From positions 43,458 to 107,457 of IMG/VR virus record IMGVR_UViG_3300029908_000004: 64,000 nucleotides of DNA, one strand, 5' to 3'. This DNA comes from a virus. Below, piece by piece: positions 1,103-32,407 of this stretch. Below the pieces are notes generated by a model that saw only the letters and a program-made list of their open reading frames with translations, made no database searches and was not told the origin of the DNA. The position numbers and the translations under genes were made by a program. The stretch's first letter is position 1; the number at the start of each line of letters is the position of its first letter.

Positions 1103-1324
1103 ATGAACGATAATTTGATTAAAATCTGCCGTAAATGTAAAATCCCTAAAGATCGTGACGAATTCCCGTGGAAGAACAAATCCAAAGGAATTCGCCATAA
1201 TACTTGTAAGCATTGTACACGGGACTATAGTGAAAACTATTACAAGTCAAATCAAAATGAACTATCAGAGAAAGCTAAACTACACCAAAGGGAGAAAAGA
1301 GCTGCTAAACCAAATGTGGTTTAA
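1103..1324 (+). CDS. small Cys-rich zinc-ribbon protein (73 aa)
   Basis: CxxC...CxxC pairs (CRKCK...CKHC). GAGGTG Shine-Dalgarno 6 nt upstream of ATG. One of the few plus-strand ORFs. Confidence 0.45.
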   Translation: MNDNLIKICRKCKIPKDRDEFPWKNKSKGIRHNTCKHCTRDYSENYYKSNQNELSEKAKLHQREKRAAKPNVV

Positions 1325-3048
1325 GCTTCTAATTCCTTCTCTCGTGGTTCAGCATCATAGCTATCAATAGACAGTTTCATGTCCTCAGAGAACTTTATAG
1401 CCACTTCTACTGATCTCTTGATATCTCCTATTCTAATCTCACGACCATTATCTGCCCGAGCTAGTGTTTGTGACAAACGGATGGCATTTTTGATTTGTCG
1501 TCCGTTTAGATTATAAACACTCATCTCTTTCGACCACTGTGCATTCATTTTGGCCGCTTCTAGTAGGTTGTACCAGATTTTCTCTCTCTTTTCCTGTCCG
1601 TTGTTACAGAAATGAAGTGCTACAGAGATGCGGCTATAAAATGCCTTATCAATATTCTTGACACGATTGGTGGTAAGGAAAAGTACTCCGTTGTGATATT
1701 CTAGCAAACGAAGGAAAACACCAACCATAGCATTTCTTTCGATGTCGTGCTCATCACGAGCTTCCAAGAAGATATCTGCCTCATCCAGAAGGATAACAGC
1801 ATCCCAAATCGTTGCTACCTCCAAGATATTGCGTAAATGAGATTCCAAGTGTTCTGTATCTGTTCCCAATTCTCCTACTGAGACTGAATACAGTGGCTTG
1901 TGAAGAATTTCTGCAACTGCTTCAGCAGAAGCAGTTTTACCTAACCCCGGTTCTCCATGAAGCAGGAAGATGCAGCCTCCACCTTTACCTTCAATGATAT
2001 CGGTGAATCCGCCACCATGGTATTTAACCAGAGAGTAAATCAAATCCTTACTGTCTTGATCCAACACCAGTCGATCAAAAGCATCCTCACGGAAATTGAT
2101 CTCGCTCAAGCCAGAAAGTCTTAGACGTCCCCATTCCTTAACTTGTAAGCTAAACCCCAGAAGATATGGATAACAGCGCCAATAGTCTTCTTCTTTTAAC
2201 TTGGTTTCATCTTTTTGGGTAACTTCTACTTCATCGTCGTCTTCCAAATTGATACCCAACATACGTCCACATTGGCCCCAAACGTCAGGTTTTAATCTGG
2301 AGAAGGAAACTGGATCGATTACCACACGACCAGAAGCTCTCGTTATCTTGTTCCCGAGCCAACTTGGTGATATCATGTTGCCTTCGTAATGAAGGTACCT
2401 ACCCGGTTTAGACATTGATAGAATCTTCTCTCCACGTTCGGACATGGACTTCTTCTCAGAGTCAGTGACCAACCGAATTGGTAACGAACTAATTGGTACG
2501 CTACCCGGGAATCCGTTTATTCCGAATGAATAATCATTCTCCACGATTTTGCCGCATAACCCATGTATAACCCTTAGGGAGATCCTGAATACAGGACCCA
2601 TCCATGTATAATCTATTCTTGACTTCCTGACGATACCACCAATGGCTTCTTCCCCTTGGATAACAACTTCTTTCTCTTCTGGGAAATATCTTATCATATC
2701 GTTAAGGGTAAGAACTCCGTTATCGATTCTTGCTAAGAATAATTTCTCTAACAATTCCCCCATCGACTGAATATATTTATAAAGGTCTTTACCCTTTTTG
2801 TCAGTTTTCAGCGATGTCCCCTCGTTTGATACATAGCCGTGATAAAACTGACACAATACATAGATAGGGTATCTATGACGATATATAATTGCGGCTTCGT
2901 AATCCCATACTTTTGTTAGATCGCTAAACACTAAAGTCTTTATATATTGGTCTTTAACAGATCGGAAACAGACCACTTCTTCACCAGAAATATCAAGAAT
3001 TGTGTAGAAGTCTGTTGCATTAATTAATTTCTCTGCGATTTCCATACG
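1321..3048 (-). CDS. AAA+ ATPase with large N-terminal domain
   Basis: Walker A GEPGLGKT, Walker B ILLDEAD, sensor/arginine-finger region LTTNRVKNIDKAFYSRI. Start trimmed to the internal Met (MEIAEKL) because the upstream extension of the ORF overlaps the tRNA at 3148-3232. Confidence 0.8.
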   Translation of the reverse strand, partial: RMEIAEKLINATDFYTILDISGEEVVCFRSVKDQYIKTLVFSDLTKVWDYEAAIIYRHRYPIYVLCQFYHGYVSNEGTSLKTDKKGKDLYKYIQSMGELLEKLFLARIDNGVLTLNDMIRYFPEEKEVVIQGEEAIGGIVRKSRIDYTWMGPVFRISLRVIHGLCGKIVENDYSFGINGFPGSVPISSLPIRLVTDSEKKSMSERGEKILSMSKPGRYLHYEGNMISPSWLGNKITRASGRVVIDPVSFSRLKPDVWGQCGRMLGINLEDDDEVEVTQKDETKLKEEDYWRCYPYLLGFSLQVKEWGRLRLSGLSEINFREDAFDRLVLDQDSKDLIYSLVKYHGGGFTDIIEGKGGGCIFLLHGEPGLGKTASAEAVAEILHKPLYSVSVGELGTDTEHLESHLRNILEVATIWDAVILLDEADIFLEARDEHDIERNAMVGVFLRLLEYHNGVLFLTTNRVKNIDKAFYSRISVALHFCNNGQEKREKIWYNLLEAAKMNAQWSKEMSVYNLNGRQIKNAIRLSQTLARADNGREIRIGDIKRSVEVAIKFSEDMKLSIDSYDAEPREKELEA

Positions 3049-3147
3049 AATTGTCCTTTTCTTGGAGCTGGTGACCGAAGTCGAATCGATAACCTCTACT
3101 TTACGAAAGTATTGCTCTTCCAATTGAGCTACACCAGCGTTGATATC

Positions 3148-3232
3148 TGGAGCGAGAGACGGGATTTGAACCCGCATGTCTTTCAACGGTAGCTTGGAAG
3201 GCTACTGACCAACCGAGTAGGTCATCTCCCGC
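3148..3232 (-). tRNA. tRNA-Gly (anticodon UCC) with atypical 13-nt variable arm, CCA encoded
   Basis: Acceptor GCGGGAG/CTCTCGC with U73, as in bacterial tRNA-Gly. D-arm GACC-TACTCGGTT-GGTC. Anticodon arm GTAGC-CTTCCAA-GCTAC. Variable region CGTTGAAAGACAT can form a small stem (GTT-GAAA-GAC). T-arm GCGGG-TTCAAAT-CCCGT. Confidence 0.7.
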
Positions 3233-5803: not shown

Positions 5804-6289
5804 TTAGAACTTAAATACTATTCCACCGCTATAACGAAACCCAGAGACCCCTTTACCATCATGAATTGAATATATGTGGTCTAGGTCAATGGCTCTAATA
5901 GCAACATGTTTAAATAGGTTGTAATCAACTGCTCCGCCAGTGGCTATAGCAAATCCAGAATCCGAAAACTTATTAATCTCTGCACGTTCCCAGCCTAGTA
6001 ATACGTGGCTGGATACGTCTATGTTTCCTACTGAGAATAACTTTACAGTAGGACCAACAGAGTATACATAAGCTCGCTTACCGTCTGAGAAATTGCCACT
6101 TAGGTCTACTGTTGCACCAAACCTAGGAGTGAAGAAGTAAGTTCCATCTGCTTGATACCCAAGCACGTTGGAAAACTGACTTACATCTGTATGGCGATAT
6201 TGAATACCACCGTAGACCTCGACCTTGTCTTGGGCGAGTGCGAAAGTACTTAATAGTACCATAGCAACAGCTAACATGAAATTACGCAT
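5804..6289 (-). CDS. outer-membrane beta-barrel protein (OmpA/OmpX/Lom-like), signal peptide
   Basis: Signal peptide MRNFMLAVAMVLLSTFALAQ. Alternating amphipathic beta-strands with Y/F/G-rich segments. C-terminal ...GGIVFKF aromatic terminus typical of OMP barrels. Confidence 0.7.
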   Translation of the reverse strand: MRNFMLAVAMVLLSTFALAQDKVEVYGGIQYRHTDVSQFSNVLGYQADGTYFFTPRFGATVDLSGNFSDGKRAYVYSVGPTVKLFSVGNIDVSSHVLLGWERAEINKFSDSGFAIATGGAVDYNLFKHVAIRAIDLDHIYSIHDGKGVSGFRYSGGIVFKF

Positions 6290-6406: not shown

Positions 6407-6481
6407 TGGCGATCCAGATCGGATTTGAACCGACACAAACTTCAGAGACAGTGAAGTGCACTGCCGTTATGCTACTGGACC
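6407..6481 (-). tRNA. tRNA-Asp (anticodon GUC), CCA encoded
   Basis: Acceptor GGTCCAG/CTGGATC, D-arm GCAT-AACGGCA-GTGC, anticodon arm CTTCA-CTGTCTC-TGAAG, T-arm GTCGG-TTCAAAT-CCGAT, discriminator G, CCA. Confidence 0.85.
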
Positions 6482-6766
6482 AAAATCTTAGGTGGATATA
6501 ATTGGAATTGGATATTTCGGATATCTTAGTCCAGCAAACATCACCAGCGTCAAATATCCTACACCTTTATGTGGTCAAAGGTAACCGCACTGACTTCTCA
6601 ATACTAGTAGTGTCTTAACCAGACACAGGCTTATAACTATTTAACCTCTGTGTTTGCTATTCTTTCAAATAGCTCTTCTCTATCAGAGAAGGTTTAATTG
6701 TCCCCGAGGTAACGGGTACTTGCACGGTTATAGAGATAACCAAGTTCCGGCGACCCACCAAAGGTC

Positions 6767-6937
6767 TTAATGCTTTATTGTTACTCCTGCTGTGTTTACA
6801 AAACCTAATAACACGGTTAGAGCCCAGAAGAATAACCCCCAAGCTAGCATATTAAATCTAGGATTGGGGAAATTAACACCACAAGCTGCGATCAATAAAC
6901 AAACCACAGCTAAAATCATTAGAACTAAACCTACCAT
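6767..6937 (-). CDS. small hydrophobic membrane protein (56 aa), not in supplied ORF track
   Basis: ATG preceded by a G-rich SD; two predicted TM helices (MVGLVLMILAVVCLLIAACG...WGLFFWALTVLLGF). Confidence 0.35.
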   Translation of the reverse strand: MVGLVLMILAVVCLLIAACGVNFPNPRFNMLAWGLFFWALTVLLGFVNTAGVTIKH

Positions 6938-6988
6938 TGTAAAACCCCCATATTTACCTTCTAGAGGTTCAACGAACGTAGTTTGTTG

Positions 6989-7210
6989 TTATTGCAATCC
7001 AAGTAGTGGAAGTTTTGCTCCACCACTCTTACCTCTTGTCTTCTTGCCGGGCTTGAACTTAGCCTTGGCATATCTGACAGAGGGTGGGTATGCTTTCATT
7101 ACCCTTTCACGATGAGCTTCACGTTCAGCTGCCTTACGAAGTCTCGTAGCTTCTTTCTGCTCTTCAGTCCTTGGGAGATGTACAGTTTCTCCATTCACTC
7201 GACAGCGCAT
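6989..7210 (-). CDS. small basic (Arg/Lys-rich) protein (73 aa)
   Basis: Strongly basic composition (KKTRGKSGGAK, RLRKAAEREAHRER). Preferred over the overlapping plus-strand ORF 6792-7115 with low-complexity translation. Confidence 0.4.
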   Translation of the reverse strand: MRCRVNGETVHLPRTEEQKEATRLRKAAEREAHRERVMKAYPPSVRYAKAKFKPGKKTRGKSGGAKLPLLGLQ

Positions 7211-7246
7211 ATGTAGCTCCTTTTAATGTTTGGAACTATTTATTCA

Positions 7247-7610
7247 TCTCTCGGATATGGATTGACAAAGGTATTGCCTGCACGCAGGCTGTCATTTTAA
7301 TTGTAGATAACCTTTATACTTCGACCCGAGATTCTTTGTTGCTTAAGATGTAGATTGATAAGGGAATGCCTTTTCCCGAGATGGATCCGGGAACCACTGT
7401 AGGCAACAGCTAGCTTGCGCTTTTAGATAACCCTTGTCGTTCGACCCTAAGCGGAATTTATATTGTTATGGATATGGATTGATAAGGTTATGCCTTATTT
7501 GGGTATCGAAACCCGCTGCAGGCGACAGTTAGACTTTCGTCCATCCAGATAATCCTCGTCGGTCGACCCATAACAAAGTTGTTAAAACTACTTCTTTTTA
7601 CCACCCTTAC
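7247..7610. repeat. tandem array of 3 degenerate ~120-bp repeat units, each with bipartite motif GATAAYC-N7-KTCGACCC and GATTGAYAARGG submotif
   Basis: Motif copies at 7296-7317, 7416-7437, 7538-7559 (spacing 120/122 bp). Submotif GGATATGGATTGA at 7243, 7341, 7460. Confidence 0.6.
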
Positions 7611-7826: not shown

Positions 7827-7905
7827 TGGTGGATCGTATGAGAATCGAACTCATCTGAAATCTTCTTTGCAAAAGAAGTGACCACCCCGTGCAGTCCCAC
7901 AACCC
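7827..7905 (-). tRNA. tRNA-Ala (anticodon UGC), CCA encoded
   Basis: Acceptor GGGTTGT/ACGATCC including the G3:U70 Ala identity pair. Anticodon arm CTTCT-TTTGCAA-AGAAG. T-arm ATGAG-TTCGATT-CTCAT. Confidence 0.75.
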
Positions 7906-9333: not shown

Positions 9334-10092
9334 TTATGCTAATGGAACAAGGATATAATCCATCAGCTTCTTGCCAATCTTTGAGCTTGATACGTCAATG
9401 TCCTGCTCATTGGCGCGGGCTCTTGCCTTCTTGACGAATCTTGACAGGTTTTCAACCCTCTCCAGAAGTGAAGCTTTCATAACTGGAGTCAACATTGAGG
9501 ACCATTCCTGAGTTCTCAATAGACCTGTTGCAATGGTTTCTTCCAGAATTTGACACTGTGCTGGATGTTTGTCTGTAGCCGGGTACAGAACTAGTGGTTT
9601 CTTTACAAGTGTTTTGCGCTCTGATTCCACGTCTCTCGCTTGATAGATTCCTACTGAGCGGTTATCGTCTTGCTTGAACCCTTTTGTTGGATCAAGTGTT
9701 GGAATAGCTGTCAGAAGAACCTGAACTTCCTTCAACCTCTTTTCCAACTGCAATAGACTTGTGGCGGGGACATCCTTCAGGATTGTGTTTCCGTCATCGT
9801 CTACCACATCTGCTCTTGCTTGAGTATTTGCTACATCAACCTGATGTGACAGGTCAATACTCTTGATCTGGAATGCCGACCACCACAACAGTTCATCTTT
9901 CACTGTTGTCTGAATCTCTGACACTTCCTCGATCTTGACTGGTGCACCTTCTGTATAAGCAGAGTAGGTCTTACGAATCTCACTGAAATGAGATCTTTTC
10001 TTCTCGAAGGTGGCCTCTAATTCAGTCCGTGTTTTTGCGGCTTGATTTTCCAAATTCTTCTCAACCGCTAGTAACTCATGTAGCTTTGGCAT
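9334..10092 (-). CDS. hypothetical protein (252 aa)
   Basis: Intact ORF with a GAGG SD; no motif recognised. Confidence 0.55.
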   Translation of the reverse strand: MPKLHELLAVEKNLENQAAKTRTELEATFEKKRSHFSEIRKTYSAYTEGAPVKIEEVSEIQTTVKDELLWWSAFQIKSIDLSHQVDVANTQARADVVDDDGNTILKDVPATSLLQLEKRLKEVQVLLTAIPTLDPTKGFKQDDNRSVGIYQARDVESERKTLVKKPLVLYPATDKHPAQCQILEETIATGLLRTQEWSSMLTPVMKASLLERVENLSRFVKKARARANEQDIDVSSSKIGKKLMDYILVPLA

Positions 10093-10153
10093 ATCTGAAC
10101 CTCACTTGGGTTTCTCTTTGTAAGTTTGAGTTTAGTTAAAAGGGCATGGTACT

Positions 10154-10387
10154 TTAGTACATGTCCTGATCTTGTGGTGATATAAAAGGAGGAGGTGGTG
10201 CGCCCGGTTCCCCAGTGGCTAATGCATTGCGACCAGCAGCTAAGATAATACGAATTTCTTGTATTACTCTCCAGTTCTCGTATGAGAATCTTTGAGCTGC
10301 TGTTTGGTCGTATTCAGTCATTACTTCTTCTATCATATCAAACTGAATACGATTAAATGTTACTGTAATCTGTTCTTCCTGTCCCAT
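10154..10387 (-). CDS. hypothetical protein (77 aa)
   Basis: Intact ORF; acidic N-terminal half and Pro-rich C-terminus. Confidence 0.5.
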   Translation of the reverse strand: MGQEEQITVTFNRIQFDMIEEVMTEYDQTAAQRFSYENWRVIQEIRIILAAGRNALATGEPGAPPPPFISPQDQDMY

Positions 10388-10415
10388 TTTACCTTTGTTT
10401 AGAATTGCAGATTGT

Positions 10416-10559
10416 CTAGATATTTCTGCCAGAGAATAGCCCTATCATTAATACTATAAAGGCTAGTACTAGTAAAAGGTGGATTAAACCGCCTGCTATA
10501 TGGAGACCGAAACCAAGTAACCATAAAAATAGTAAAATTATTAATATCGTCCAAAGCAT
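10416..10559 (-). CDS. small membrane protein (47 aa), not in ORF track
   Basis: GAAGGA SD; single/double TM (MLWTILIILLFLWLLGFGLHIAGGLIHLLLVLAFIVLMIGLF). Confidence 0.4.
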   Translation of the reverse strand: MLWTILIILLFLWLLGFGLHIAGGLIHLLLVLAFIVLMIGLFSGRNI

Positions 10560-10611
10560 ATGAATCCTTCACGTTATTGTAGGGTGGTTCCCCACCCTAC
10601 AATGTTGAATG

Positions 10612-10767
10612 TTAGAGCCTACCCAATACTAGAAGTATAATGAGGATTAAAAGAACTAATCCTATTCCTCCACTTGGAAAGTATCCCCAATTCTGACTGT
10701 GTGGCCAAGAAGGCAACGCACCGACGAAGAAGAAGATCAATAGTATTACTAGGATTATTCCTAACAT
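10612..10767 (-). CDS. small membrane protein, DUF3309-like (51 aa), not in ORF track
   Basis: AAGGAG SD 6 nt upstream. Sequence MLGIILVILLIFFFVGALPSWPHSQNWGYFPSGGIGLVLLILIILLVLGRL matches the widespread DUF3309 small-protein pattern (GALP.WP.S..WGY.PSGG). Confidence 0.5.
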   Translation of the reverse strand: MLGIILVILLIFFFVGALPSWPHSQNWGYFPSGGIGLVLLILIILLVLGRL

Positions 10768-10778
10768 CTGTTACTCCT

Positions 10779-11438
10779 TTACATTGATACGTTTATTGCT
10801 ATTGCTACACCAGCATGTCTACTATCATATAGATAATACCCACCACCTTCATAAACAATATAGCAATCATCTGTATCATACCAGTTATCGCCCCAGTCCC
10901 CGGGATAAGGGTCAGCTAGTACAAACCAAAAACCGTTATATTGGAAGCTTGGGAACCCATTAACCAATCTATATGGGTAGCTGCCAATTCTGAATGAGTG
11001 TTCTCTTCCGAATGACGTTCTAAACCTATCATCTGGAATATGATACCCGTTATACCCGCCACGAGCTGCCCAAGTCTTATGTTCACCAGCCCAATTACCT
11101 GACTTGTGAGCTTGCCAATCACTTCTTTGTTCTTTTGGTCTCTGTTCTTGTTTAGGCTGTTGAGCTTGCTTCGGAGCATGTTGTTGTTTAGGCTGTTGAT
11201 CTCTTTGTTCTACTCGTTGAGCGCTCGGCTTCGACATCTGAGAAGGCTGGCTGCGTGGATGTGATTGAGGACGCTGTTGGTCCATATTATGTTGTGGTTT
11301 CGCACTCTGTTGTGATTTAACTTGTTCGTGCTGTTGAGCTGGCTTTTCTTGCTTTTCACCAGACTTCTGTGCGTATACTGGGGCTATCCCAATAAGTGCA
11401 CACATCAAGATACCTAAGTATCTACTTTTCATGAACAT
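10779..11438 (-). CDS. secreted Gln/Pro-rich protein with Tyr/Trp/Gly-rich C-terminal domain (219 aa)
   Basis: Signal peptide MFMKSRYLGILMCALIGIAPVYA. Long Q/P/K low-complexity linker. Aromatic-rich C-terminal domain (possible RcnB-like fold, uncertain). Confidence 0.6.
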   Translation of the reverse strand: MFMKSRYLGILMCALIGIAPVYAQKSGEKQEKPAQQHEQVKSQQSAKPQHNMDQQRPQSHPRSQPSQMSKPSAQRVEQRDQQPKQQHAPKQAQQPKQEQRPKEQRSDWQAHKSGNWAGEHKTWAARGGYNGYHIPDDRFRTSFGREHSFRIGSYPYRLVNGFPSFQYNGFWFVLADPYPGDWGDNWYDTDDCYIVYEGGGYYLYDSRHAGVAIAINVSM

Positions 11439-11517
11439 TGTTCTCCATTGCTACTAATAAAAGCTCAATGGCTTTCACTTGTTTCAGTCCTACATGTTTA
11501 ATTAGTATACGATAATT

Positions 11518-11916
11518 CTATCCATCTATGTTAGTGTTTTGTTTCTTCTTCCAGTCACGTATTGCAGCCGCTATCGCGTCTTGGGCAAGAACCGAGCAAT
11601 GAATCTTGACCGGAGGCAGTGACAGCTCTTTCACTATGTCGGTGTTCTTGATCTGCAGAGCCTCGTCCACCGTCTTGCCTTTTACCCACTCGGTCGCCAG
11701 CGATGACGATGCGATCGCCGAGCCGCAGCCGAACGTCTTGAACTTCGCGTCCTCGATGATCCTGGTCTGCGGGTTTACCCGGATTTGCAGCTTCATGACG
11801 TCGCCGCATTCCGGAGCGCCGACCAGCCCGGTGCCAACCTCATCTGCATTCTTGTCCATGGTGCCGACGTTGCGCGGATTGGTGTAGTGATCCAGTACCT
11901 TATCGCTGTAAGCCAT
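11518..11916 (-). CDS. iscU: Fe-S cluster assembly scaffold protein IscU
   Basis: Near-complete match to the IscU pattern (MAYSDKVLDHYTNPRNVG...GAPECGDVMKLQI...FKTFGCGSAIASSSLATEWVKGKTVDEA...LPPVKIHCSVLA). GAGGAG SD. Local GC content much higher than surroundings. Confidence 0.9.
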   Translation of the reverse strand: MAYSDKVLDHYTNPRNVGTMDKNADEVGTGLVGAPECGDVMKLQIRVNPQTRIIEDAKFKTFGCGSAIASSSLATEWVKGKTVDEALQIKNTDIVKELSLPPVKIHCSVLAQDAIAAAIRDWKKKQNTNIDG

Positions 11917-12825: not shown

Positions 12826-13146
12826 TTACTTCTTAAACAGTCTTTCTAATTCTCTTACATCCGGGTTAATAGGCTCTGGTTCATCCATGTTGTCATCATC
12901 ATCATCATCATCGTCATCGTCATCATTGTCAAAGTATCGGTCGTAGACATATACTTGACAATTACACCTTGTAAGTGCATTTTCCATTACACAACAACCA
13001 TGTTTACCTTCAGTGTGACGACATCTGAAGTGCCCACATTGACATACACCCGGTTTGAGTCTCAAGAGTTCTTTTATAAGTAATAATATAACAATAATCA
13101 TCATTATTGCTACTACAATGATAAACAACTGAGTTATCAAGGTCAT
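12826..13146 (-). CDS. membrane-anchored Cys/His-rich protein with poly-Asp tract (106 aa)
   Basis: N-terminal TM helix, CQCGHFRCRHTEGKHGCC...CNCQ metal-binding-like cluster, then DNDDDDDDDDDDDN acidic run. Confidence 0.55.
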   Translation of the reverse strand: MTLITQLFIIVVAIMMIIVILLLIKELLRLKPGVCQCGHFRCRHTEGKHGCCVMENALTRCNCQVYVYDRYFDNDDDDDDDDDDDNMDEPEPINPDVRELERLFKK

Positions 13147-13164: not shown

Positions 13165-13239
13165 TGGTACGCCGTGAGAGATTTGAACTCCCAACCTCTT
13201 GCTTGTAACGCAAATACTCTACCATTGAGCTAACGGCGT
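13165..13239 (-). tRNA. tRNA-Val (anticodon UAC), CCA encoded
   Basis: Acceptor ACGCCGT/ACGGCGT, D-arm GCTC-AATGGTA-GAGT, anticodon arm TTTGC-GTTACAA-GCAAG, T-arm GGGAG-TTCAAAT-CTCTC, discriminator A. Confidence 0.9.
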
Positions 13240-13529: not shown

Positions 13530-15230
13530 TTACTCCGCTTCTGCTTCTTCAGTTTCCAATACTTCCGTTTTCCCTGAAACGAATTGGGCAATCAACGAAG
13601 GCACATTGGTATCGAATCCAACCACGTCCAACGAACGTACATCGTTTGGATCTGCGATCGAGAATCCAGTTGCTGTCATCCCGATGACAATCTGATGAGC
13701 GTTACGTCCAGAACTCTGACGATAGCTCTCCAAAGCGCTAAATACGTGTTTAGGTCCTGCCCAAGTCTCGTTGTCAGTGATGTTGACAAACACATCGACT
13801 GGCATCTTCTTTTCTTGTGCATCCTTATATGGAAGTGAACAATCTGTTCCTCCCCACCCTGTGCGTAGTGCCTTGGATATTGCTGCGTCTAGCTTCATGG
13901 ATTTAACCAATCCAACATCAATCATCTTGGTGTTGTAGGAAGCAACGTGATGCCATGGCTCATTATGCATGATTACCATAGCCATTGCTACTGCACCCAT
14001 GATTGGTGACATGTTTGGACAACCAACAAGATTTCCCCATCCCATTGAGCCGGAACAATCCAAGCCAATGTAATAGTTCAAATTGGTGGTTTCAGCATTC
14101 TTAAACGTCTTATAGAACGCTGCGTCCATAGCATCCAAAACTGGTTTCACCACTGTCCAAGTCAACGAGCCACGAATGCCATGACCAGTTTGATAGGTTA
14201 ACATAGCATTCAGAACAGTTAGTGGGTGAACACGACTACGTTGCAGATATTCCTGATCCGACAGACGTGTTACTACTAGCTTTGACGCCTCTGATAGAGG
14301 AGCTAACAGCTTGATGCTACTCATCTTACCAAGGTTCCTGATCATTGCGTTCATGGGCATTTTCTGAAGCAATGCCTCCCAAACTGCAACGTGGTTCAAT
14401 GCCTCTGTAGGGATCATTTCGCGAGTGAGGTTGTACTTCTGAATCGCTGAAATGATTACCTTTGGGTCTTTTTCATTCTTCATTGCCTCGAACTGCTTAA
14501 TCAGTTCTGGCAAGTCCTTCTCTAAATCGGTTGCTCCGTGCAGACCTTTGGTAGCCCAATCAAACAAGGCTTTCTGCCCATTCGACAACGTAGCATGGGT
14601 ACCTGCATGGGTGGCACGAAGGATGTCGCGATGGCTCCATCCTTGTGTTCCATCCACACGCCGTGATTGGTATTTCACCATCTGATAAGCCAGTTTCTGC
14701 TCATCTTTCTGTGTGTACCAATCTGCTACGCCGTTGCGTAGTGACCTATTCCAACGCATCTTTGCGGCACCTTCGGCCTGTTTTGACCGCATGCCTTTCA
14801 GATATTCCATTAGTTGGAACAAATGCGTTCCGATACGTGCTACGTCTGGCAGTTTATCCAAGGCGTAACCACGAGTGGATTTGTCACCGAATGCTATACA
14901 CTGTGCCAACGCGAACAGGGCATAGTCATTCTTTGGAGCCCGGCCAGATACAGAGATATCGACAATCGTTTTTACTGTCTTCTCTCCATCTGCCGAAATA
15001 CAGCGTTCAACGCACTTTGCGTTGTCACGCGTCAACTTGTCGGCACCAACATAATAAGTGCCACCTTCGCTTCCAAGAATTATAAATCTCTGGAGTCGGT
15101 CCCAGTCACTCAGTTCAAAAACATAACCTCCAGCGTTATTCTGAACTTGATTCTTTTCTGGGAATGGTTCACTTTGAGGAATTGTTGGCTTCATCGCCCC
15201 ATACACATTTGTTAGGTTGGGTTTCTTCAT
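13530..15230 (-). CDS. rsr: Ro60/Rsr ortholog (TROVE domain + vWA domain with MIDAS)
   Basis: N-terminal TROVE-like segment (YVFELSDWDRLQRFIILGSEGGTYYVGADKL). C-terminal vWA with MIDAS DxSxS (YYIGLDCSGSM). Length 566 aa typical of bacterial/phage Rsr. Confidence 0.8.
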   Translation of the reverse strand: MKKPNLTNVYGAMKPTIPQSEPFPEKNQVQNNAGGYVFELSDWDRLQRFIILGSEGGTYYVGADKLTRDNAKCVERCISADGEKTVKTIVDISVSGRAPKNDYALFALAQCIAFGDKSTRGYALDKLPDVARIGTHLFQLMEYLKGMRSKQAEGAAKMRWNRSLRNGVADWYTQKDEQKLAYQMVKYQSRRVDGTQGWSHRDILRATHAGTHATLSNGQKALFDWATKGLHGATDLEKDLPELIKQFEAMKNEKDPKVIISAIQKYNLTREMIPTEALNHVAVWEALLQKMPMNAMIRNLGKMSSIKLLAPLSEASKLVVTRLSDQEYLQRSRVHPLTVLNAMLTYQTGHGIRGSLTWTVVKPVLDAMDAAFYKTFKNAETTNLNYYIGLDCSGSMGWGNLVGCPNMSPIMGAVAMAMVIMHNEPWHHVASYNTKMIDVGLVKSMKLDAAISKALRTGWGGTDCSLPYKDAQEKKMPVDVFVNITDNETWAGPKHVFSALESYRQSSGRNAHQIVIGMTATGFSIADPNDVRSLDVVGFDTNVPSLIAQFVSGKTEVLETEEAEAE

Positions 15231-15314: not shown

Positions 15315-15473
15315 TTAAGAACGATTTTCTTTGGTGAGCAGCTGGGCAACCGTTTCCAGTGAATTGAAGCTTGGGACGTGGGCGTCTGGAGGCGCTGGGT
15401 GCAAACCCTTTGCCACAGCCGTCATCTCCTCACGCAACGATTTCAGCGATTGAATTTTCAACTTGCTCGTCAT
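15315..15473 (-). CDS. small GC-rich ORF (52 aa), hypothetical
   Basis: ATG with weak GGGGTG SD; GC-rich codon usage unlike neighbours; not in ORF track. Confidence 0.3.
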   Translation of the reverse strand: MTSKLKIQSLKSLREEMTAVAKGLHPAPPDAHVPSFNSLETVAQLLTKENRS

Positions 15474-15499
15474 CCTACACCCCGGATATGATGTTGCAT

Positions 15500-16110
15500 A
15501 GGGTTTGTTGTCAAGGTAACCCTACGCGTTCGACCCGTGGTCGAATTTTGTTGCTATGGATATAATACGATTGAAGGCGTTTTTATCTGCAATGATTGAT
15601 AACCTTCATTCTTCGACCCATAGCCGATATTAATAGAGTGGATATAAACAACTTTGCTGGGATATTGTTTAAATTAGCAGTTTAAGGTAACCCAACGATC
15701 TCGACCCACTCCATGATTTGATGGTGGAAAGAGGTATTGTATGTTTGGCCCAACACCGGCCTAGATATATCCGCAGTGCTGGTTTCCTCTCTTACAAATT
15801 ACCTAGTTCTAGGCACCAAATAACCGTAAGCCACCAAACTTTATTACTTCGTTTCAAAATCTTTAATATCTAGTAGATATAAATTTGACTGGATGTTTTA
15901 GAGTGTCCTGCCAATTAGACGATGCCGGTTACCCGGTAGAGAGATTCGAACTCCCATAACCCGCTCCATAGGCGATAACCCAATCGGGTCGACCCACTAG
16001 ATAAATTCATTTGCTCCCTAGGAGCGCTTTACATTCTTATGGTGTGGATATAAACAACTTAGTCAGGAAGTTTATCAAAGTAATAAGGTAATCCTAACTA
16101 TTCGACCCAA
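15500..16110. repeat. repeat-rich intergenic region upstream of rsr with 5 further copies of GRTAAYC-N7-KTCGACCC
   Basis: Motif copies at 15525-15546, 15598-15619, 15686-15707, 15974-15995, 16087-16108. Recurrent GTGGATATAAACAACTT submotif at about 15550, 15641, 16044. Confidence 0.55.
15905..16000 (-). ncRNA. second tRNA-mimic module (T-arm, short acceptor hairpin with GTAA loop, D-like arm)
   Basis: Minus strand: GGGAG-TTCGAAT-CTCTC, then TACCGG-GTAA-CCGG, then GTC-TAATTGGCAG-GAC. Flanks TATCTAGT and ACTAGATA can pair. Located 0.7 kb upstream of rsr. Confidence 0.3.
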
Positions 16111-16231
16111 ACCATTTCCTATGCGAGGAGCAATAACAATATAATAAAGAGAACTGGGTGAAGGTTCCAGAAAGCCAGAATTAGTGCTCCCTTTCCTAGT
16201 AGGGCAAGTAGAATTAGAATTAATATCATAA

Positions 16232-16498: not shown

Positions 16499-16575
16499 TG
16501 GCTGAGAGGGAGGGATTCGAACCCTCGGAATCTCTGGCTTAACAGGCCAGCGCATTACCACTTTGCTACCTCTCA
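16499..16575 (-). tRNA. tRNA-Asn (anticodon GUU), CCA encoded
   Basis: Acceptor TGAGAGG/CCTCTCA, anticodon arm CTGGC-CTGTTAA-GCCAG (as in E. coli tRNA-Asn), T-arm GAGGG-TTCGAAT-CCCTC, discriminator G. Confidence 0.85.
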
Positions 16576-20895: not shown

Positions 20896-21384
20896 TTAAG
20901 CGCGTAAACTTGCTTCCAAGAAATAGAGGAACTTTTCTAATCCTCTTACTAACCCAATATATACGTCTTGGGTTATTAGATCCCCATTCTCACTGGAGAC
21001 TTTCATACCTTTCCTCATTGCATTGGAAATGTCACTGATATAATCTGACATCTTTTCTATGTGGGTTCTACAATTGTCATCATAGATACCAGCGTAAGTA
21101 AAACCTTGACTATTGTTTGTAACCATCCAAGGTTTACCTTCTGGTACACCACCTAGAGCTGTTATTCGCTCGGCGATAGTATCGCTAGCATCTGCCATAT
21201 AATCATAGATTTGATCAAATAGTAGATGTGTAGGATGAAATCCATCCCCTTTCACATTCCAGTGTGCAAATTTTATATCCATTTGTGCCAGCATGGTATT
21301 AGCAAGATTCACGTTTAGATTGTCGACGATTACCTTGATCTTATCTTCTGGCACGTCAATGCGCGTCGTATACAATTCACTCAT
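20896..21384 (-). CDS. dps: Dps-family ferritin-like DNA-binding protein
   Basis: Dps signature: LNVNLANTMLAQMDIKFAHWNVKGDGFHPTHLLFDQIYD...TIAERITALGGVPEG... C-terminal WFLEA-like helix (KFLYFLEASL). Confidence 0.8.
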   Translation of the reverse strand: MSELYTTRIDVPEDKIKVIVDNLNVNLANTMLAQMDIKFAHWNVKGDGFHPTHLLFDQIYDYMADASDTIAERITALGGVPEGKPWMVTNNSQGFTYAGIYDDNCRTHIEKMSDYISDISNAMRKGMKVSSENGDLITQDVYIGLVRGLEKFLYFLEASLRA

Positions 21385-25674: not shown

Positions 25675-26331
25675 TTACATATTCTTCAGCAAATCTTCTG
25701 CGGCTGCCGTTGTCTCAGGATCTTCAGATGTAGTGACAGCTCCCATGGCACGGTTCAACTTCTCTGTGGCTATATCATTCTGTGCTCGCATGCGCCCTTC
25801 AACATCATCGACAGAGATATCTGCCCCACTGCCTACTAATCTACCCGCGTGCTCAAGAGCAGTTGCTGCATGAGTTTGAGCCTTCGAGGACTGATTTAGT
25901 GCCTCAAGTTCACGAACTTTGCTCAACATCTCTGCATGCTTACTGGTAATATTGGCGACTGAAATGTCCATCTTGTTCGATGTTTCCGTCTCTGAAATCA
26001 ACAAAGCCTGCTTGTTGGTTACTTCATTCTGTAACCGAACAATTTCCTTTGCTTTTTCCAAAGCCTGATCAGGATGCCCGTTGTTTTTCAGCTTCGTTGC
26101 TGTAATTCTGGAGGTCTCGATTTTTGCATTGAGATCGTCGATCTCACGCTTTGTCGTGTGAACTGTAGCTGCTGCTACCGCTGCTTCTCCACGTAGCTGG
26201 TCAAGAGCCTCTTCCAGATCCCTTACATACTGCCGAAGAGCAGATGGACTGTTAAGATCGATCACTTTGTCAAGTAGATCATGGGTCTCACCAAGTCCAA
26301 TCGTTCTGAGCTTGCTAAAAATTCCTGTCAT
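25675..26331 (-). CDS. pspA: PspA/IM30 (phage shock protein A family, ESCRT-III-like)
   Basis: N-terminus MTGIFSKLRTIGLGETHDLLDKVIDLNSPSALRQYVRDLEEALDQLRGEAA parallels the PspA opening MGIFSRF..IVNANINALLEKAEDPQK..R..I.EMED.L. Long coiled-coil, 219 aa. Start trimmed to this Met (purine-rich SD). Confidence 0.8.
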   Translation of the reverse strand: MTGIFSKLRTIGLGETHDLLDKVIDLNSPSALRQYVRDLEEALDQLRGEAAVAAATVHTTKREIDDLNAKIETSRITATKLKNNGHPDQALEKAKEIVRLQNEVTNKQALLISETETSNKMDISVANITSKHAEMLSKVRELEALNQSSKAQTHAATALEHAGRLVGSGADISVDDVEGRMRAQNDIATEKLNRAMGAVTTSEDPETTAAAEDLLKNM

Positions 26332-26347
26332 TGCCTTTCCCTTCTTC

Positions 26348-27688
26348 TTAGAAATCGCTACTACCACCGCCGCCGCTGTCGGAACTGCTGCTACTGTCAA
26401 AGCTGCTACTCCCGCCGCTGTCAAAGCTAGAACTGGAATCAGAACTACCCCAACTGGATGAGCCACCAGACTCGCTTTCACGATCTGGTTCTGGATCTGG
26501 AGCTCTGTACGTTGATTCTTCTCGTCTTGGTTCTTCGCGACGAATCTCTTCCACACGTGGTCGATTGTTTATAGATTCGCCGATGAGAACACCAGTCAAT
26601 AAATCATTGTTGGGAGTTGATGTCGGTGTTGGTTCATAAGTCGGTCTTTGTTCTATGTTATGGTGCTGGTGATGATGCCTAACTTGGTTGTATCCAGTGG
26701 TATCATTTACATCGGCAGTGTCAATGGGGGGTCCTTGTTCAGCCGGCTGTTCCGTTGCCATTGGGCTCTGTACATATTTGTGTGCTGAACGTAGAGACTC
26801 GAACTTATCGATGAGGATTCGATATTCTTTGGTAATGGCTTGATAACCATCTTCTGTCATACTTTGTTTGGGGTCCATCGAGTCTGAGTTCTCCATATTG
26901 GAAAACTCTTCCATATACGTATCAAACATATCTTGAATGGATTTCTCTGGTGGATCACTCTGGAACGCTGATTTGAGGGTAAGAACTAGCGCAATACATT
27001 GATTCTTTGTAACTTGAGCTAACCTCTTCGCTTTTGCTTTGGCATCTCTTATTTCTGCCCAACGGGTGCAAGCGATATACCCTGCGGCAATAATGAAGAT
27101 TAAGAACCCCAATCCAAGACACCATAGTAGTACAGTCCATAAACCTTTATAGTCCGTTGCTTGGACATTGGTTGTGTTCTGGACTGGGTGTAGAGCTTCA
27201 TCTTTGGAAGCCGCTAATCGAAGTGAGAATTGTTCGATACCAGTAGACATGCCAAGTGCATAGTTACCGTCTTTGAATCTTGGGATCATATAGGACGTCA
27301 TGATCCGGTTCCAATTTCCGTCTAGTGCGGAATGCCAAGCGGAACCATACATTATTCCTACTTTATGATTCCCGGCTAACATAAAAACAATGAGTGTACT
27401 TTTACGTCCACCGCTGCCACTTTCCCAAGAGGCACATTGGTTCTCCATCTGTTTTTCTGTGATATCGAGGTTGGTGCTATACCCGACTGTCCTTATTCGG
27501 ACATCAGCGCCTTGTTGAACCAACCTGTTCGCAGCGGTTTCTACTGTTGTAATACCTTTTCCAAACAGATTTGCTTGGTCAATGACAATGTTGTCACACA
27601 ATAGAGATTGAGCCATGACCCAACCTGACGTTGAAAACACCATCATCATAACCAACAACGTATACATTGTCAGCTTTGAACTTTTCAT
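26348..27688 (-). CDS. TPM-domain protein (YgcG-like): signal peptide, TPM domain, TM helix, Gly/Ser-rich C-terminal tail
   Basis: Signal peptide, TPM-like block (VIDQANLFG...VRIRTV), central TM (LWTVLLWCLGLGFLIFIIAAGYIA), C-terminal GGSSSWGSSDSSSSFDSGGSSSFD...GGGGSS tail. Sits 16 nt upstream of pspA. Confidence 0.7.
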   Translation of the reverse strand: MKSSKLTMYTLLVMMMVFSTSGWVMAQSLLCDNIVIDQANLFGKGITTVETAANRLVQQGADVRIRTVGYSTNLDITEKQMENQCASWESGSGGRKSTLIVFMLAGNHKVGIMYGSAWHSALDGNWNRIMTSYMIPRFKDGNYALGMSTGIEQFSLRLAASKDEALHPVQNTTNVQATDYKGLWTVLLWCLGLGFLIFIIAAGYIACTRWAEIRDAKAKAKRLAQVTKNQCIALVLTLKSAFQSDPPEKSIQDMFDTYMEEFSNMENSDSMDPKQSMTEDGYQAITKEYRILIDKFESLRSAHKYVQSPMATEQPAEQGPPIDTADVNDTTGYNQVRHHHQHHNIEQRPTYEPTPTSTPNNDLLTGVLIGESINNRPRVEEIRREEPRREESTYRAPDPEPDRESESGGSSSWGSSDSSSSFDSGGSSSFDSSSSSDSGGGGSSDF

Positions 27689-31364: not shown

Positions 31365-31489
31365 ATATTCCTTGTTCAATCTTATCCCAAGTACTCAGGA
31401 CTAAAAGGGGGTAGTGTAAGTTATAAAGTAGTAAAGTACACTACCCTTCGTATTTGTCTACTTCTGACCACCAAACCATCATGGCTTGT

Positions 31490-32407
31490 CTACTTGTTTG
31501 GAATTCCAATCAGAAAGTTTCCACCCTTGTCACCACCGGATAGATACTCTGGCATACGACCATCCCAACGCCAAATAGCAGCATTCTGGTTATCCAGTGC
31601 TCTCATATTTAAGATGTTTGGTGTGATTGAAGCGTTCCTGATTCTATTGGCTTCCGCTTCACCAGTAGCCTTGGTAATCTGTGCCTTAGCTTCACCCTCA
31701 GACTGAGCAACTAGTTTAGCTGCATCAGCTTGCACCTGAATAAGCTCAATCTGCTTCTTCTGTGCAACTTGATTTGCCTGTGCCTTATTGTTGATAGCAT
31801 CGATTACTGATTGAGGTGGCCTTGGTGCTCCGATGAACCCGAACTGAGTAAGCTCAGCTCCATACTCTAATACTTGGCTTTGAACGCATTTCTTGGTTTC
31901 TTCAATGAAAACTGCGTTATCACCCATAACTTGTTCGATGCCATACTTGCCGGCATGTTCATTGAAGCAGTCTCTTGCTATGTTTCTAAGGAACCCGTGA
32001 GTGAATTTCGTATCAATTTCTTTTTCGTCGTGTGCCAAGAACTTTACATAGAAGTATGGAACTTTCTCTGCATGTAGGAAATAACTCAATGAGATATCAG
32101 CACCAATTACCATTGAATCTTTGTTGGTAAAGGTGATACTCTCGTCGATTGGCTTGCCCTCGTTGGGGCTTGCAGTCCATTTCGCTGTCTGCATGGAGGT
32201 TGGGTATTCATACACACTCTCGGTAATTGGGTTATAAAACACCCAGCCAGTACGAACAGGGGTATCCGTTACCCCTTTGCTTGAACCTGCCATGTTTACA
32301 ACAATTCCGACATGTCCCGGTCCAACTGACGTCCAGCCACAACCGGTTAGGAGACAAGCGGATAAGATAGTAACAATCAAGCTAAGATTCGCTGTGTTTA
32401 GTTTCAT
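31490..32407 (-). CDS. SPFH/Band-7 (stomatin/HflK-like) lipoprotein
   Basis: Lipobox LLTGC after the signal peptide. SPFH core (PGHVGIVVNM...). Ala/Gln/Glu-rich coiled-coil tail (AQSEGEAKAQITKATGEAEANRIR). AAGGAG SD at the trimmed start. Confidence 0.8.
   Translation of the reverse strand: MKLNTANLSLIVTILSACLLTGCGWTSVGPGHVGIVVNMAGSSKGVTDTPVRTGWVFYNPITESVYEYPTSMQTAKWTASPNEGKPIDESITFTNKDSMVIGADISLSYFLHAEKVPYFYVKFLAHDEKEIDTKFTHGFLRNIARDCFNEHAGKYGIEQVMGDNAVFIEETKKCVQSQVLEYGAELTQFGFIGAPRPPQSVIDAINNKAQANQVAQKKQIELIQVQADAAKLVAQSEGEAKAQITKATGEAEANRIRNASITPNILNMRALDNQNAAIWRWDGRMPEYLSGGDKGGNFLIGIPNK

Follow-up and report, generated by a model that had tools for sequence, protein, structure and literature searches.

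The Ro60 gene and its neighbourhood

The 64-kb window (the whole stretch of DNA analysed) carries, exactly at nt 13530–15230 of the minus strand, a 566-aa ATG-to-stop ORF that specifies a full-length Ro60/Rsr ortholog, with a ribosome-binding-like motif (AAGAGG) about 10 nt 5' of its start codon. The gene and its two domains are as follows.

nt 13530–15230, minus strand: Ro60/Rsr ortholog of 566 aa, made up of a TROVE ring and a vWA domain (ORF, Pfam, PHROG 850, phmmer, Foldseek)
nt 14202–15146, minus strand: TROVE (HEAT-repeat ring) domain, residues 29–343, including the GWSHRDILRATH block with H208 (Pfam, alignment)
nt 13578–14075, minus strand: vWA domain, residues 386–551, with MIDAS residues D391/S393/S395 (nt 14046–14060), T462 and D486 (Pfam, alignments)

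Profile searches gave matches far above thresholds to Pfam TROVE (PF05731, residues 29–343; E 1.3e-39, 137.1 bits against a gathering cutoff of 23) and vWA_Ro60 (PF25045, residues 386–551; E 2.3e-47, 161.4 bits against a cutoff of 27.7). The preliminary description of this DNA had recognised a Ro60/Rsr ortholog from a TROVE-like N-terminal region and a vWA domain with an intact MIDAS, and both assignments stand. The N-terminal region belongs to Pfam TROVE and not to an unrelated HEAT/ARM family, while LDCSGSM (residues 390–396) is part of a complete MIDAS (DxSxS...T...D: D391, S393 and S395, with T462 and D486), all five residues of which are invariant among 22 homologs (47–75% identity) and align with those of human and Xenopus Ro60. 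The protein also matches PHROG 850, and its phmmer alignments to the human, Xenopus and Deinococcus proteins (9nen, 1yvp and 2nvo; E 1e-95 to 7e-109) span the full length. The NCBIfam Rsr equivalog model (NF041674) covers the full length (11–554) at 421.6 bits, below its cutoff of 900, because the sequence has diverged from the bacterial seeds; no feature is missing. The NCBI pipeline would name the product a TROVE-domain protein, not Rsr.

By alignment, the histidine on which Y RNA binding depends is retained in the phage protein: H208 (within GWSHRDILRATH) corresponds to vertebrate H187, is at least 90% conserved in the homolog set, and is accompanied by the invariant residues K186, Y187 and R190. 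In Ro60, H187S is a mutant without Y RNA binding (PMC11277228). Structure comparison, named in the preliminary description as a check, agreed with the assignment. An AlphaFold (AF2) model (pLDDT 88.6, pTM 0.87) predicts a closed ring that can be superposed on experimental Ro60 structures, with Foldseek matches to RNA-bound Xenopus Ro60 (1yvp_A; TM 0.88/0.94, rmsd 2.4 Å, 545 columns) and D. radiodurans Rsr (2nvo; TM 0.65/0.73).

The window holds 10 tRNA genes and so was correctly called tRNA-rich. The ORF, its domain matches, the MIDAS and the tRNA count could not have arisen by chance. Genes that bear on the locus are listed below.

nt 16499–16575, minus strand: tRNA-Asn, upstream of array 1 of the Y RNA modules (synteny in relatives)
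nt 13165–13239, minus strand: tRNA-Val, downstream of Ro60 (conserved synteny)
nt 6407–6481, minus strand: tRNA-Asp, directly after module Y9 (tRNA genes)
nt 29853–31379, minus strand: CCA-adding enzyme (tRNA nucleotidyltransferase), context only (PHROG 2244, Pfam PolyA_pol and related domains)

Two related loci, L001 and L012, keep the gene order tRNA-Asn, Y RNAs, Ro60, tRNA-Val, tRNA-Trp. Enzymes of the CCA-adding class have been shown to act on the YrlA RNA of M. smegmatis (Chen 2014, PMC4201824). An rtcB/rtcA-like or exoribonuclease partner, which the preliminary description proposed to look for, did not emerge: the window ORFs of at least 250 aa include no RtcB, RtcA, PNPase, RNase II/R, Rnl or PNK, and neither the window nor the gene tables of loci L004–L012 contain RtcB, RtcA or RtcR. 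Given this absence from the window, the effector, if any, is probably supplied by the host, for example PNPase. Elsewhere in the window, a PHROG label on the ORF at nt 36539–37792 raised the idea of a Z-genome, which was discarded; the NCBIfam PurA (147 bits) and PurZ (28 bits) scores are both below their cutoffs.

Y RNA modules

The strand that carries the Ro60 gene also has nine Y-RNA-like modules. Five are upstream (array 1, Y1–Y5, nt 15477–16115), ending 247 nt before the Ro60 start codon, and four are 6–8.7 kb downstream (array 2, Y6–Y9, nt 6487–7576). R1 in the list is the covariance model described below.

nt 16039–16115, minus strand: Y1, 77-nt simple (YrlB-like) module (5' signature, fold, alignment A1, R1 62 bits)
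nt 15868–16002, minus strand: Y2, 135-nt YrlA-type module with tRNA-like domain (fold, covariation, R1 E 0.005)
nt 15633–15714, minus strand: Y3, 82-nt Y RNA module (motif, fold, closing stem, second helix, R1)
nt 15551–15626, minus strand: Y4, 76-nt module with strict GNCGAAG motif (motif, fold, both helices, R1)
nt 15477–15543, minus strand: Y5, 67-nt module (motif, fold, both helices, R1)
nt 7463–7576, minus strand: Y6, 114-nt module with variant T-arm-like hairpin GGGUUUCGAUACCC (motif, fold, helices, R1 E 1.2e-5)
nt 7339–7454, minus strand: Y7, 116-nt module (motif, fold, helices, R1 E 1.3e-5)
nt 7246–7334, minus strand: Y8, 89-nt module (motif, fold, both helices, R1)
nt 6487–6763, minus strand: Y9, probable long 277-nt module with variant motif GGGUCGC (motif, closing stem, second helix)

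Bacterial and phage Y RNAs have been defined by GNCGAAN0-1G near the 5' end, followed about 15–20 nt later by YUAY, which opens the variable region (PMC4201824). Each of the present modules has an Rsr-binding signature (GNCGA, with UUAY about 17 nt further on), a closing stem and a second helix, in a scaffold of stem, internal loop and stem. The signature has six exact and nine relaxed copies, all on the Ro60 strand, where shuffling expects 0. The relaxed motif alone is noisy (about six chance matches per window), and the stem criterion was therefore required as well. UUAY is present at a fixed spacing in all nine modules and the GNCGA core in eight (Y9 has GUCGC), while CGAA occurs in five and the strict GNCGAAN0-1G in four (Y4, Y5, Y7 and Y8). 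Y5 has the weakest closing stem (8/11) yet the strongest second helix (-17.2 kcal/mol). Y9, whose 3' end is about 6 nt from tRNA-Asp, has a closing stem of 10/11 and a second helix of -9.0 kcal/mol.

Both helices are copy-specific in their complementarity. The closing stem forms 5.8 of 7 pairs between a module's own flanks but only 3.0 of 7 on cross-pairing (0/20,000 permutations), and the corresponding energies for the second helix are -10.6 and -5.6 kcal/mol (0/5,000 permutations). RNAalifold on the module alignment gave nine pairs, eight of them compensatory. For the closing stem, 96.7% of alignment cells are paired (70% when shuffled) and the covariation is 0.88, compared with 0.31 for shuffled alignments and at most 0.2 for slid registers. 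The modules thus have what is required of a Y RNA: a long stem that pairs the 5' end with the 3' end and is interrupted by an internal loop where Ro is predicted to bind. Scans for sigma-70 promoters and intrinsic terminators returned chance levels.

An alignment (MAFFT) that included long modules misaligned their 3' ends, so covariance model R1 was built from ten short modules only, five from the window and five from other phages. It recovered Y2, Y6 and Y7, which were outside the training set, and nothing else across the 64 kb. Y9 was missed because of an insertion of about 230 nt and is therefore the least certain module. A scan with Rfam at gathering and permissive thresholds found no significant Y RNA match in the window. 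The gathering scores are 69 bits for YrlA (RF02553) and 97 bits for YrlB (RF02565); Y2 had no match at E up to 10, and Y1 gave a weak full-length alignment to YrlB (16.6 bits, not significant). The positive controls, YrlA of mycobacteriophage Catera (36.1 bits) and the RNA of related locus L011 (33.5 bits), also fell under the gathering score, so that these models miss known phage Y RNAs and the absence of a match is uninformative. The curated YrlA and YrlB models are narrower than the Y RNA class.

Nine modules exceed the number in any of 15 comparison loci (0–5 each) as well as the two to four reported per organism in the literature cited here, and the number of partner RNAs is the sole unusual feature of the locus.

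A tRNA-like Y RNA and element X

The folded sequence of Y2 identifies it as a YrlA-type tRNA mimic, which supports the remark in the preliminary description on tRNA-mimic RNAs. It comprises a V hairpin, a T arm (GGGAG-UUCGAAU-CUCUC), a GUAA-capped acceptor-like stem and a D arm, with the V, T, acceptor-like and D arms in YrlA order and with both the T loop UUCGAAU and the D-loop GG present. An alignment of YrlA RNAs from five phages, including the Catera RNA that is partly recognised by the Rfam YrlA model, gave a fold of 38 pairs in six helices, in which 29/38 pairs are compensatory and 91% of cells are paired (0/500 shuffles on all measures). In M. smegmatis YrlA a 7-bp acceptor stem allows cleavage by RNase P (PMC4201824); the acceptor-like stem of Y2 is shorter (4–6 bp), and RNase P cleavage would therefore not be expected.

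Array 1 also contains a further element.

nt 15722–15836, minus strand: element X, conserved structured RNA-like element (conservation in related locus L001, closing stem)

Compared with its counterpart in L001, this element includes an invariant block of 22 nt, and its closing stem covaries. Its minimum free energy is -36 kcal/mol (z -1.8); it has no GNCGA motif and no match in Rfam.

Comparison with known systems

Among the closest known parallels are the mycobacteriophages of the Bxz1/Catera type (cluster C; Pedulla 2003, PMC4201824), which are likewise large and tRNA-bearing and encode a full-length TROVE plus vWA protein. As in the present locus, Catera has several same-strand modules upstream with GNCGA, a spacer of N9-10, GGUUAYC, a 3' YAU and a closing stem, and its YrlA, with V-T-AS-D arms, aligns with Y2. 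The Ro-like proteins are, however, only about 40% identical, the core pairs are AGGC:GUCU in Catera and GGGU:AUCC here, Catera has three modules in a single cluster rather than nine in two, and element X is absent from it.

The Ro60 of Thermus phage phiLo binds two upstream CGAA-bearing Yrl RNAs together with the host PNPase (PMC12135203; PDB 9KOP, 9L5Y), the phage having no nuclease of its own and recruiting that of its host (PMC12135203). The two loci share a phage Ro60, Y-like RNAs directly upstream, and CGAA within a stem-bulge-stem, and phiLo is the best experimental guide to the way in which the present locus may operate. The phiLo complex attenuated PNPase activity and did not stimulate it (PMC12135203), so any effect on PNPase here could go in either direction. 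The differences are considerable: the two proteins share 17% identity (TM 0.54/0.63) with no sequence-level match, and phiLo has two RNAs instead of nine, no reported YrlA-type tRNA mimic, and a dimeric assembly. The present Ro60 looks much nearer to canonical animal and bacterial Ro60 than that of phiLo does.

Bacterial Rsr systems (S. Typhimurium, M. smegmatis and the RYPER of D. radiodurans, a complex of Rsr, Yrn1 and PNPase) agree with the present locus in protein architecture (E 1e-95 to 2nvo), in the Rsr-binding motif and in the YrlA tRNA-like domain, and they too encode simple (YrlB-like) and tRNA-like Y RNAs beside the gene; in M. smegmatis both kinds are processed from one precursor (PMC4201824). 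Bacteria carry two to four Y RNAs within about 2 kb, whereas there are nine here, and array 2, at 6–8.7 kb from Ro60, is farther off than the 2–4 kb usual for bacterial loci. The enterobacterial locus lies in an RtcR/sigma-54 rtcBA operon, while rtcBA was not found in the present window. In structure, too, the predicted ring fits D. radiodurans Rsr less well (TM 0.65) than it does the closed form of Xenopus (0.88).

Metazoan Ro60 is 35–38% identical over the full length and provides the best structural match. Metazoan Y RNAs (hY1, hY3, hY4 and hY5) show the same succession of stem, internal loop, stem and variable loop, and the 5' strand of hY1 (GGUCCGA...GUUAUC) is resembled by GGGUCGA...GUUAUC here. 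They differ in being individual Pol III genes, in keeping the bulged-C helix on both strands, and in binding La at a 3' U-tract; the present RNAs have a conserved 3' YAU bulge, are arrayed among tRNA genes, and include one with a tRNA-like domain.

Distribution in other phages

Knowledge of phage-encoded Ro60 goes back to the mycobacteriophage genomes, and annotated copies occur in hundreds of phage records; the number of GenBank phages with a homolog is 356. The combination of phage Ro60 with Y RNAs is established biology (Chen 2014; Iyer 2021; the phiLo structure paper of 2025). A probe built from the RNA alone recovered six metagenome loci and three genome loci, and Ro60 is directly downstream in 7/9 of these (7/8 true matches). 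One match (L026) was discarded as a chance match inside a transporter-like CDS, and one locus, from Nocardia, has a YrlA-like RNA with no Ro60 within its 8 kb. No matches were returned by megablast of the locus against GenBank phages, by protein-pattern scans of IMG/VR and metagenome contigs, or by a YrlA DNA probe against IMG/VR. The locus adds an uncultured lineage of phages of about 215 kb, unmatched in the GenBank-phage and IMG/VR searches, to those known to have a Ro60-Y RNA system. The signature GNCGA...GGUUAYC with a 3' YAU bulge is kept across phages in which Ro60 is only 33–46% identical, and offers a simple route to Y RNAs missed by the Rfam models.

Proposed function and alternative explanations

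The locus probably represents a phage-encoded Ro60-Y RNA ribonucleoprotein system. In such a system, the Y modules would be co-transcribed with neighbouring tRNA genes and freed by tRNA-processing enzymes, Ro60 would bind the conserved 5' strand of each module, and the differing apical parts, in the role of adaptors, would link it to other proteins. The likeliest partner would be a host 3'–5' exoribonuclease such as PNPase, in a RYPER-like complex, a step of the model that is taken wholly from work on other systems. Decay and quality control of host RNA could thereby be redirected or dampened during infection, and the system may also monitor the phage's own tRNA supply. The preliminary description had suggested viral manipulation of RNA quality control, which may reasonably be inferred and fits the published work on phiLo (PMC12135203).

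A rather unlikely alternative is that the locus serves as a platform for RNA repair or tRNA quality control, in which Ro60 and the tRNA-like YrlA recognise tRNAs that are misfolded or damaged, such as by anticodon nucleases of the host, and hand them to a ligase or CCA-adding enzyme, guarding the supply for phage translation without hijacking decay. This reading overlaps with the ribonucleoprotein system preferred here. Both Y arrays are interleaved with tRNA genes, an arrangement also seen in L012, L015–L017, L019 and phages Sparky, LukeCage and Trina, and the phage encodes a CCA-adding enzyme. Phage TROVE proteins have been placed among RNA-repair systems (Iyer et al., PMC7824862), and Salmonella rsr and yrlBA share one operon with rtcBA (PMC4201824, PMC7790460). 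However, neither RtcB or RtcA nor an Rnl-type RNA ligase, polynucleotide kinase or phosphatase was detected in the 64-kb window of the approximately 215-kb genome, and the only ligase in the window fits ATP-dependent DNA ligase domains better, with RNA_ligase below cutoff.

It is improbable that the modules act mainly without Ro60, whether as tRNA-like RNAs that decoy or soak up tRNA-binding enzymes of the host or its defence sensors, or simply as processing spacers of the tRNA transcripts. Y2 does mimic the T, D and acceptor parts of a tRNA, a T-arm-like hairpin is present in Y6, array 2 is far from Ro60, and the Nocardia locus has a YrlA-like RNA with no Ro60 within its 8 kb, but it is only the Rsr-binding signature, and not the tRNA-like part, that all nine modules share and that persists across phages whose Ro60 is 33–100% identical. 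At least five modules have no tRNA-like domain, and nearly all of the true matches to the RNA-only probe directly precede Ro60. Since no module has an anticodon arm, none would be a decoy for anticodon nucleases.

That the window is cellular or plasmid DNA with an ordinary bacterial rsr locus is very improbable, although it has no capsid, portal, terminase or tail gene within its 64 kb, its largest ORF (1058 aa) has no phage homolog, and there is no nucleotide match to GenBank phages or IMG/VR. Against this, the 10 tRNA genes lie amid short ORFan genes, nearly all on one strand, together with an HNH endonuclease; phage-only families are matched, one of them, A1S_2505 ('phage non-structural protein'), with a score over the curated cutoff; and homologs of a DUF7873 neighbour occur in 75 phage genomes. 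Independent metagenomes yield assemblies of the same sequence that reach about 215 kb (among them contig ERZ27249030:k141_4752672), samples with this phage being JGI 3300029986, ENA ERZ27249030 and SRR8556253, and the relatives L001, L011 and L012 carry NUMOD3, RusA, Big_2 and a phage HP1-like domain. The phage-only protein families, the tRNA arrays and the contigs of about 215 kb make a phage source very likely.

It is scarcely credible that the repeated 22-nt motif, short, strictly spaced and in intergenic clusters as it is, acts as a DNA-level signal (promoter, operator or recombination site) and not as RNA, given that each copy has two copy-specific complementary partners at a variable distance of 47–257 nt, which a DNA-binding site does not need, that compensatory changes occur among paralogs and among phages, that the motif is the biochemically defined Rsr-binding motif (PMC4201824), and that the sigma-70 promoter scan was at chance.

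Within the Ro60-Y RNA system proposed above, a more speculative and on the whole unlikely extension is that the nine Y RNAs and element X form an adaptor library, by which one ring would reach several host or phage partners through RNAs with a common Ro-binding stem and differing apical modules; their siting within tRNA arrays would then let the host tRNA-processing machinery mature them. If so, this jumbo phage would be a natural system for learning how the function of Ro60 is specified by the apical modules of its Y RNAs. Ro60 biology as now understood is unchanged by the locus, whose unusually large and varied set of Y RNAs amid tRNA genes is suited to experiments on the variable parts of these RNAs.

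Ro60 Protein

The Ro60/Rsr ortholog proposed in the preliminary description corresponds to an exact ATG-to-stop ORF, preceded by a Shine-Dalgarno-like AAGAGG:

13530-15230, minus strand, Ro60/Rsr ortholog, 566 aa

Profile searches upheld the suggested TROVE and vWA organisation: Pfam placed TROVE at residues 29-343 (E = 1.3e-39) and the Ro60-specific vWA domain at residues 386-551 (E = 2.3e-47), both far over the gathering score, and the protein matched PHROG 850 ('RNA-binding protein', 7e-79). When compared with all PDB sequences (phmmer), it aligned full-length with human Ro60 (7e-109), Xenopus Ro60 (2e-104) and D. radiodurans Rsr (1e-95). The MIDAS is intact, as had been read from the sequence, with LDCSGSM at residues 390-396 and D391, S393, S395, T462 and D486 invariant among 22 homologs. 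An AlphaFold2 model (pLDDT 88.6, pTM 0.87), built as the preliminary description had proposed, superposes on RNA-bound Xenopus Ro60 with TM-scores of 0.88/0.94. Residue H208 (conservation at least 90%) is the alignment counterpart of vertebrate H187, and the H187S mutant of vertebrate Ro60 loses Y RNA binding (PMC11277228). The sole formal test failed was the NCBIfam Rsr equivalog cutoff (421 bits vs 900), a shortfall that reflects divergence from the bacterial seeds. The product is confirmed as Ro60.

Y RNA Modules

Gene callers placed no gene in the gap of about 1 kb upstream of Ro60, where the motif GGGTCGA-N9-GGTTAYC recurs. The exact motif occurs six times and a one-mismatch version nine times, all on the Ro60 strand, with 0 expected by shuffling. 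The copies (Y1-Y9) form two arrays:

15477-16115, Ro60 strand, array 1, five motif copies
6487-7576, Ro60 strand, array 2, four motif copies

The motif is similar to one strand of human Y1 (GGUCCGA...GUUAUC). It agrees with the signature reported for Rsr binding in bacterial Y RNAs, in which YUAY follows GNCGAAN0-1G at around nt 22-25 (PMC4201824). Every copy folds on a common plan. Its 5' and 3' ends pair into a closing stem, from which an asymmetric internal loop (CGA in the 5' strand, a conserved YAU in the 3' strand) leads to a second helix and a variable apex. The two helices are specific to each copy. Closing stems form 5.8 of 7 pairs with their own flanks vs 3.0 of 7 in cross-pairings, a total reached in 0/20,000 permutations, and the second helix has a duplex energy of -10.6 kcal/mol with its own partner vs -5.6 with cross-partners (0/5,000 permutations). 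For ten short modules from three phages, RNAalifold predicted nine pairs, eight of them with compensatory changes; in the same alignment 96.7% of cells were paired vs 70% after shuffling, covariation was 0.88 vs 0.31, and slid registers of the closing stem all scored at most 0.2. A covariance model trained on five window modules and five from other phages, with Y2, Y6 and Y7 left out, retrieved Y6 and Y7 (E about 1e-5) and Y2 (E = 0.005) at boundaries set beforehand, and nothing else credible over the 64 kb. It missed Y9 (277 nt), which is identified by the motif and two helices only.

Module Y2 is a YrlA-type tRNA mimic. It was aligned with its counterparts in three relatives (L001, L012 and L011) and with an RNA of mycobacteriophage Catera, itself a partial match to the Rfam YrlA model (36 bits). 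Six helices make up the consensus, namely the closing and second stems, a V hairpin, a T arm (loop UUCGAAU near-invariant, UUCGAGU in L011), an acceptor-like stem that covaries, and a D arm whose loop carries GG. This arm order is the one given for YrlA by Chen et al. Compensatory changes occur in 29 of 38 pairs and five measures all lie above 500/500 shuffles. With Y2, the tRNA-mimic RNAs mentioned in the preliminary description are borne out.

A further conserved element, X, resembling a structured RNA, lies inside array 1 between Y2 and Y3:

15722-15836, minus strand, element X, about 115 nt, three-way-junction candidate

Its counterpart in L001 is at about 6050-6195, and a 22-nt block (GGGCCAAACATACAATACCTCT) is invariant between the two phages. 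The closing stem covaries and the fold z-score is only -1.8; the element has no GNCGA (Ro) motif and matches nothing in Rfam. Y5 and the Ro60 start codon are separated by 247 nt, most of which is taken up by a 52-aa ORF (15315-15473, minus strand); gene callers passed over this ORF on all of the identical contigs (L004-L010). In L001, where the last module ends a few nt before Ro60, there is no such gap. The segment may be a remnant or a further non-coding element.

Probable Phage Origin and Comparison with Other Loci

The window contains 10 tRNA genes, as expected from the 'tRNA-rich genome' first described, interspersed with short ORFs; most of these cannot be annotated, and one strand carries nearly all of them. 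It encodes an HNH endonuclease, several phage-only PHROG families, an 'A1S_2505 family phage non-structural protein' (over the curated cutoff) and a DUF7873 protein whose homologs occur in 75 phage genomes. No virion genes occur in the window, and the phage was not found among GenBank phages or in IMG/VR. Independent assemblies contain the identical Ro60 protein, on contigs reaching about 215 kb. The source is very likely a jumbo phage, of which the window alone is no proof. Three independent assemblies of this phage (L004, L005, L006) end 0.6-4 kb from the Ro60 gene; repeated Y/tRNA modules or local strain variation may be the cause.

The order tRNA-Asn, Y RNAs, Ro60, tRNA-Val, tRNA-Trp is kept in L001 (Ro60 72% identical) and L012 (46%). 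Y9 stops about 6 nt short of tRNA-Asp, and similarly tight placement is seen in L012, L015-L017 and L019. A 22-nt probe drawn solely from the YrlA RNA found six metagenome loci. In all six, Ro60 (33-47% identical) is encoded immediately downstream, and dense tRNA arrays precede most of the loci. Among cellular genomes, it matched Nonomuraea, with Ro60 adjacent, and Nocardia amikacinitolerans (L028), where an RNA at about 2930-3080 is clearly YrlA-like, has T and D arms and carries GCCGGA in place of GNCGA as its 5' motif. No Ro60 was detectable in this 8-kb locus, even by a Ro60 profile HMM, and the RNA may be an orphan Y RNA. A third cellular match, inside a CDS, was due to chance.

Ro60 homologs occur in 356 GenBank phage records, mostly annotated 'Ro-like RNA binding protein' (best 42% identical). 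Y RNAs adjoining Ro60 in phages (Chen 2014, PMC4201824), TROVE proteins in jumbo phages (Iyer 2021) and, in 2025, the structure of a phage Ro60 with its Y-like RNAs have all been reported, so the locus adds another case to established biology. Its standout feature is copy number, with nine modules in two arrays; the 15 loci used for comparison, among them six GenBank phages searched over +/-10 kb, have 0-5. Both detectors were tuned on the present family, and modules elsewhere may be undercounted. The arrays are a useful addition to the earlier Ro60 observation.

In Rhodococcus phage Trina, a 209-nt 'tRNA-OTHER' pseudogene directly upstream of the Ro gene (9667-9875) overlaps a Y module (found by motif and stem, beginning at about 9800) and probably represents a YrlA that was misannotated. 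The Ro60 homologs of Agrobacterium phage Atu_ph07 (490 kb; 9986-11641) and of Kashi_SSH1 are misannotated in GenBank as 'Clp protease-like protein' and 'Rho-like DNA binding protein', respectively; the same detectors found no Y module within +/-10 kb of the former.

Possible Function

The window carries an intact Ro60 gene and, on the same strand among tRNA genes, nine Y RNAs that look cognate, one of them a tRNA mimic; the earlier interpretation of a phage Ro60 system is supported. By analogy, Ro60 would bind the conserved 5' strand of the modules, and the variable apices could act as tethers to effectors. PNPase has the effector role in D. radiodurans and Salmonella; in Thermus phage phiLo, host PNPase is bound by the phage Ro60 together with two Yrl RNAs encoded upstream, which lowers PNPase activity (PMC12135203). 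The search for an adjacent rtcB/rtcA-like or exoribonuclease partner, also proposed in the preliminary description, came back empty: the window encodes neither RtcB or RtcA nor PNPase, RNase II/R or an RNA-repair ligase, and a host-supplied effector is therefore the most economical assumption. The main rival reading, in which the system serves tRNA repair or quality control (Iyer 2021), is not mutually exclusive with this one, and the phage-encoded CCA-adding enzyme is compatible with either. The tight placement of modules against tRNAs suggests that they are co-transcribed and then freed by tRNA-processing enzymes; in M. smegmatis, YrlA and YrlB similarly come from a single precursor.

Other Genes

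Other features of the window, all on the minus strand, are:

3148-3232, tRNA-Gly, 85 nt (ARAGORN; under Rfam tRNA gathering score)
7827-7905, tRNA-Ala, 79 nt (ARAGORN; under Rfam tRNA gathering score)
11518-11916, IscU/NifU-type Fe-S scaffold (E = 7e-55)
12826-13146, 106-aa ORF between tRNA-Val and tRNA-Trp
20896-21384, ferritin-like protein
25675-26556, PspA/IM30 protein
31490-32458, SPFH/Band-7 protein
36539-37792, divergent adenylosuccinate synthetase (best PHROG has PurZ-type label)
47889-48422 and 48684-49277, two paralogous DprA-like genes, close together (PHROG 768)

A 2-aminoadenine (Z) genome is unsupported, the synthetase scoring 147 bits to NCBIfam PurA and 28 bits to PurZ, both under the cutoffs. 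The tRNA-Gly overlaps the upstream end of a mechanically listed ORF (1321-3186) by 39 nt (3148-3186), and the tRNA-Ala shows, by eye, a G3:U70 pair, an encoded CCA and an unusual D arm. The 106-aa ORF has no family match and displays an N-terminal hydrophobic segment, a Cys/His-rich stretch and 13 consecutive Asp. The Fe-S scaffold, ferritin-like, PspA/IM30 and SPFH/Band-7 proteins are auxiliary gene products; Rhodococcus phage Trina and Streptomyces phage LukeCage likewise have a Band-7-like gene beside Ro or close to it.
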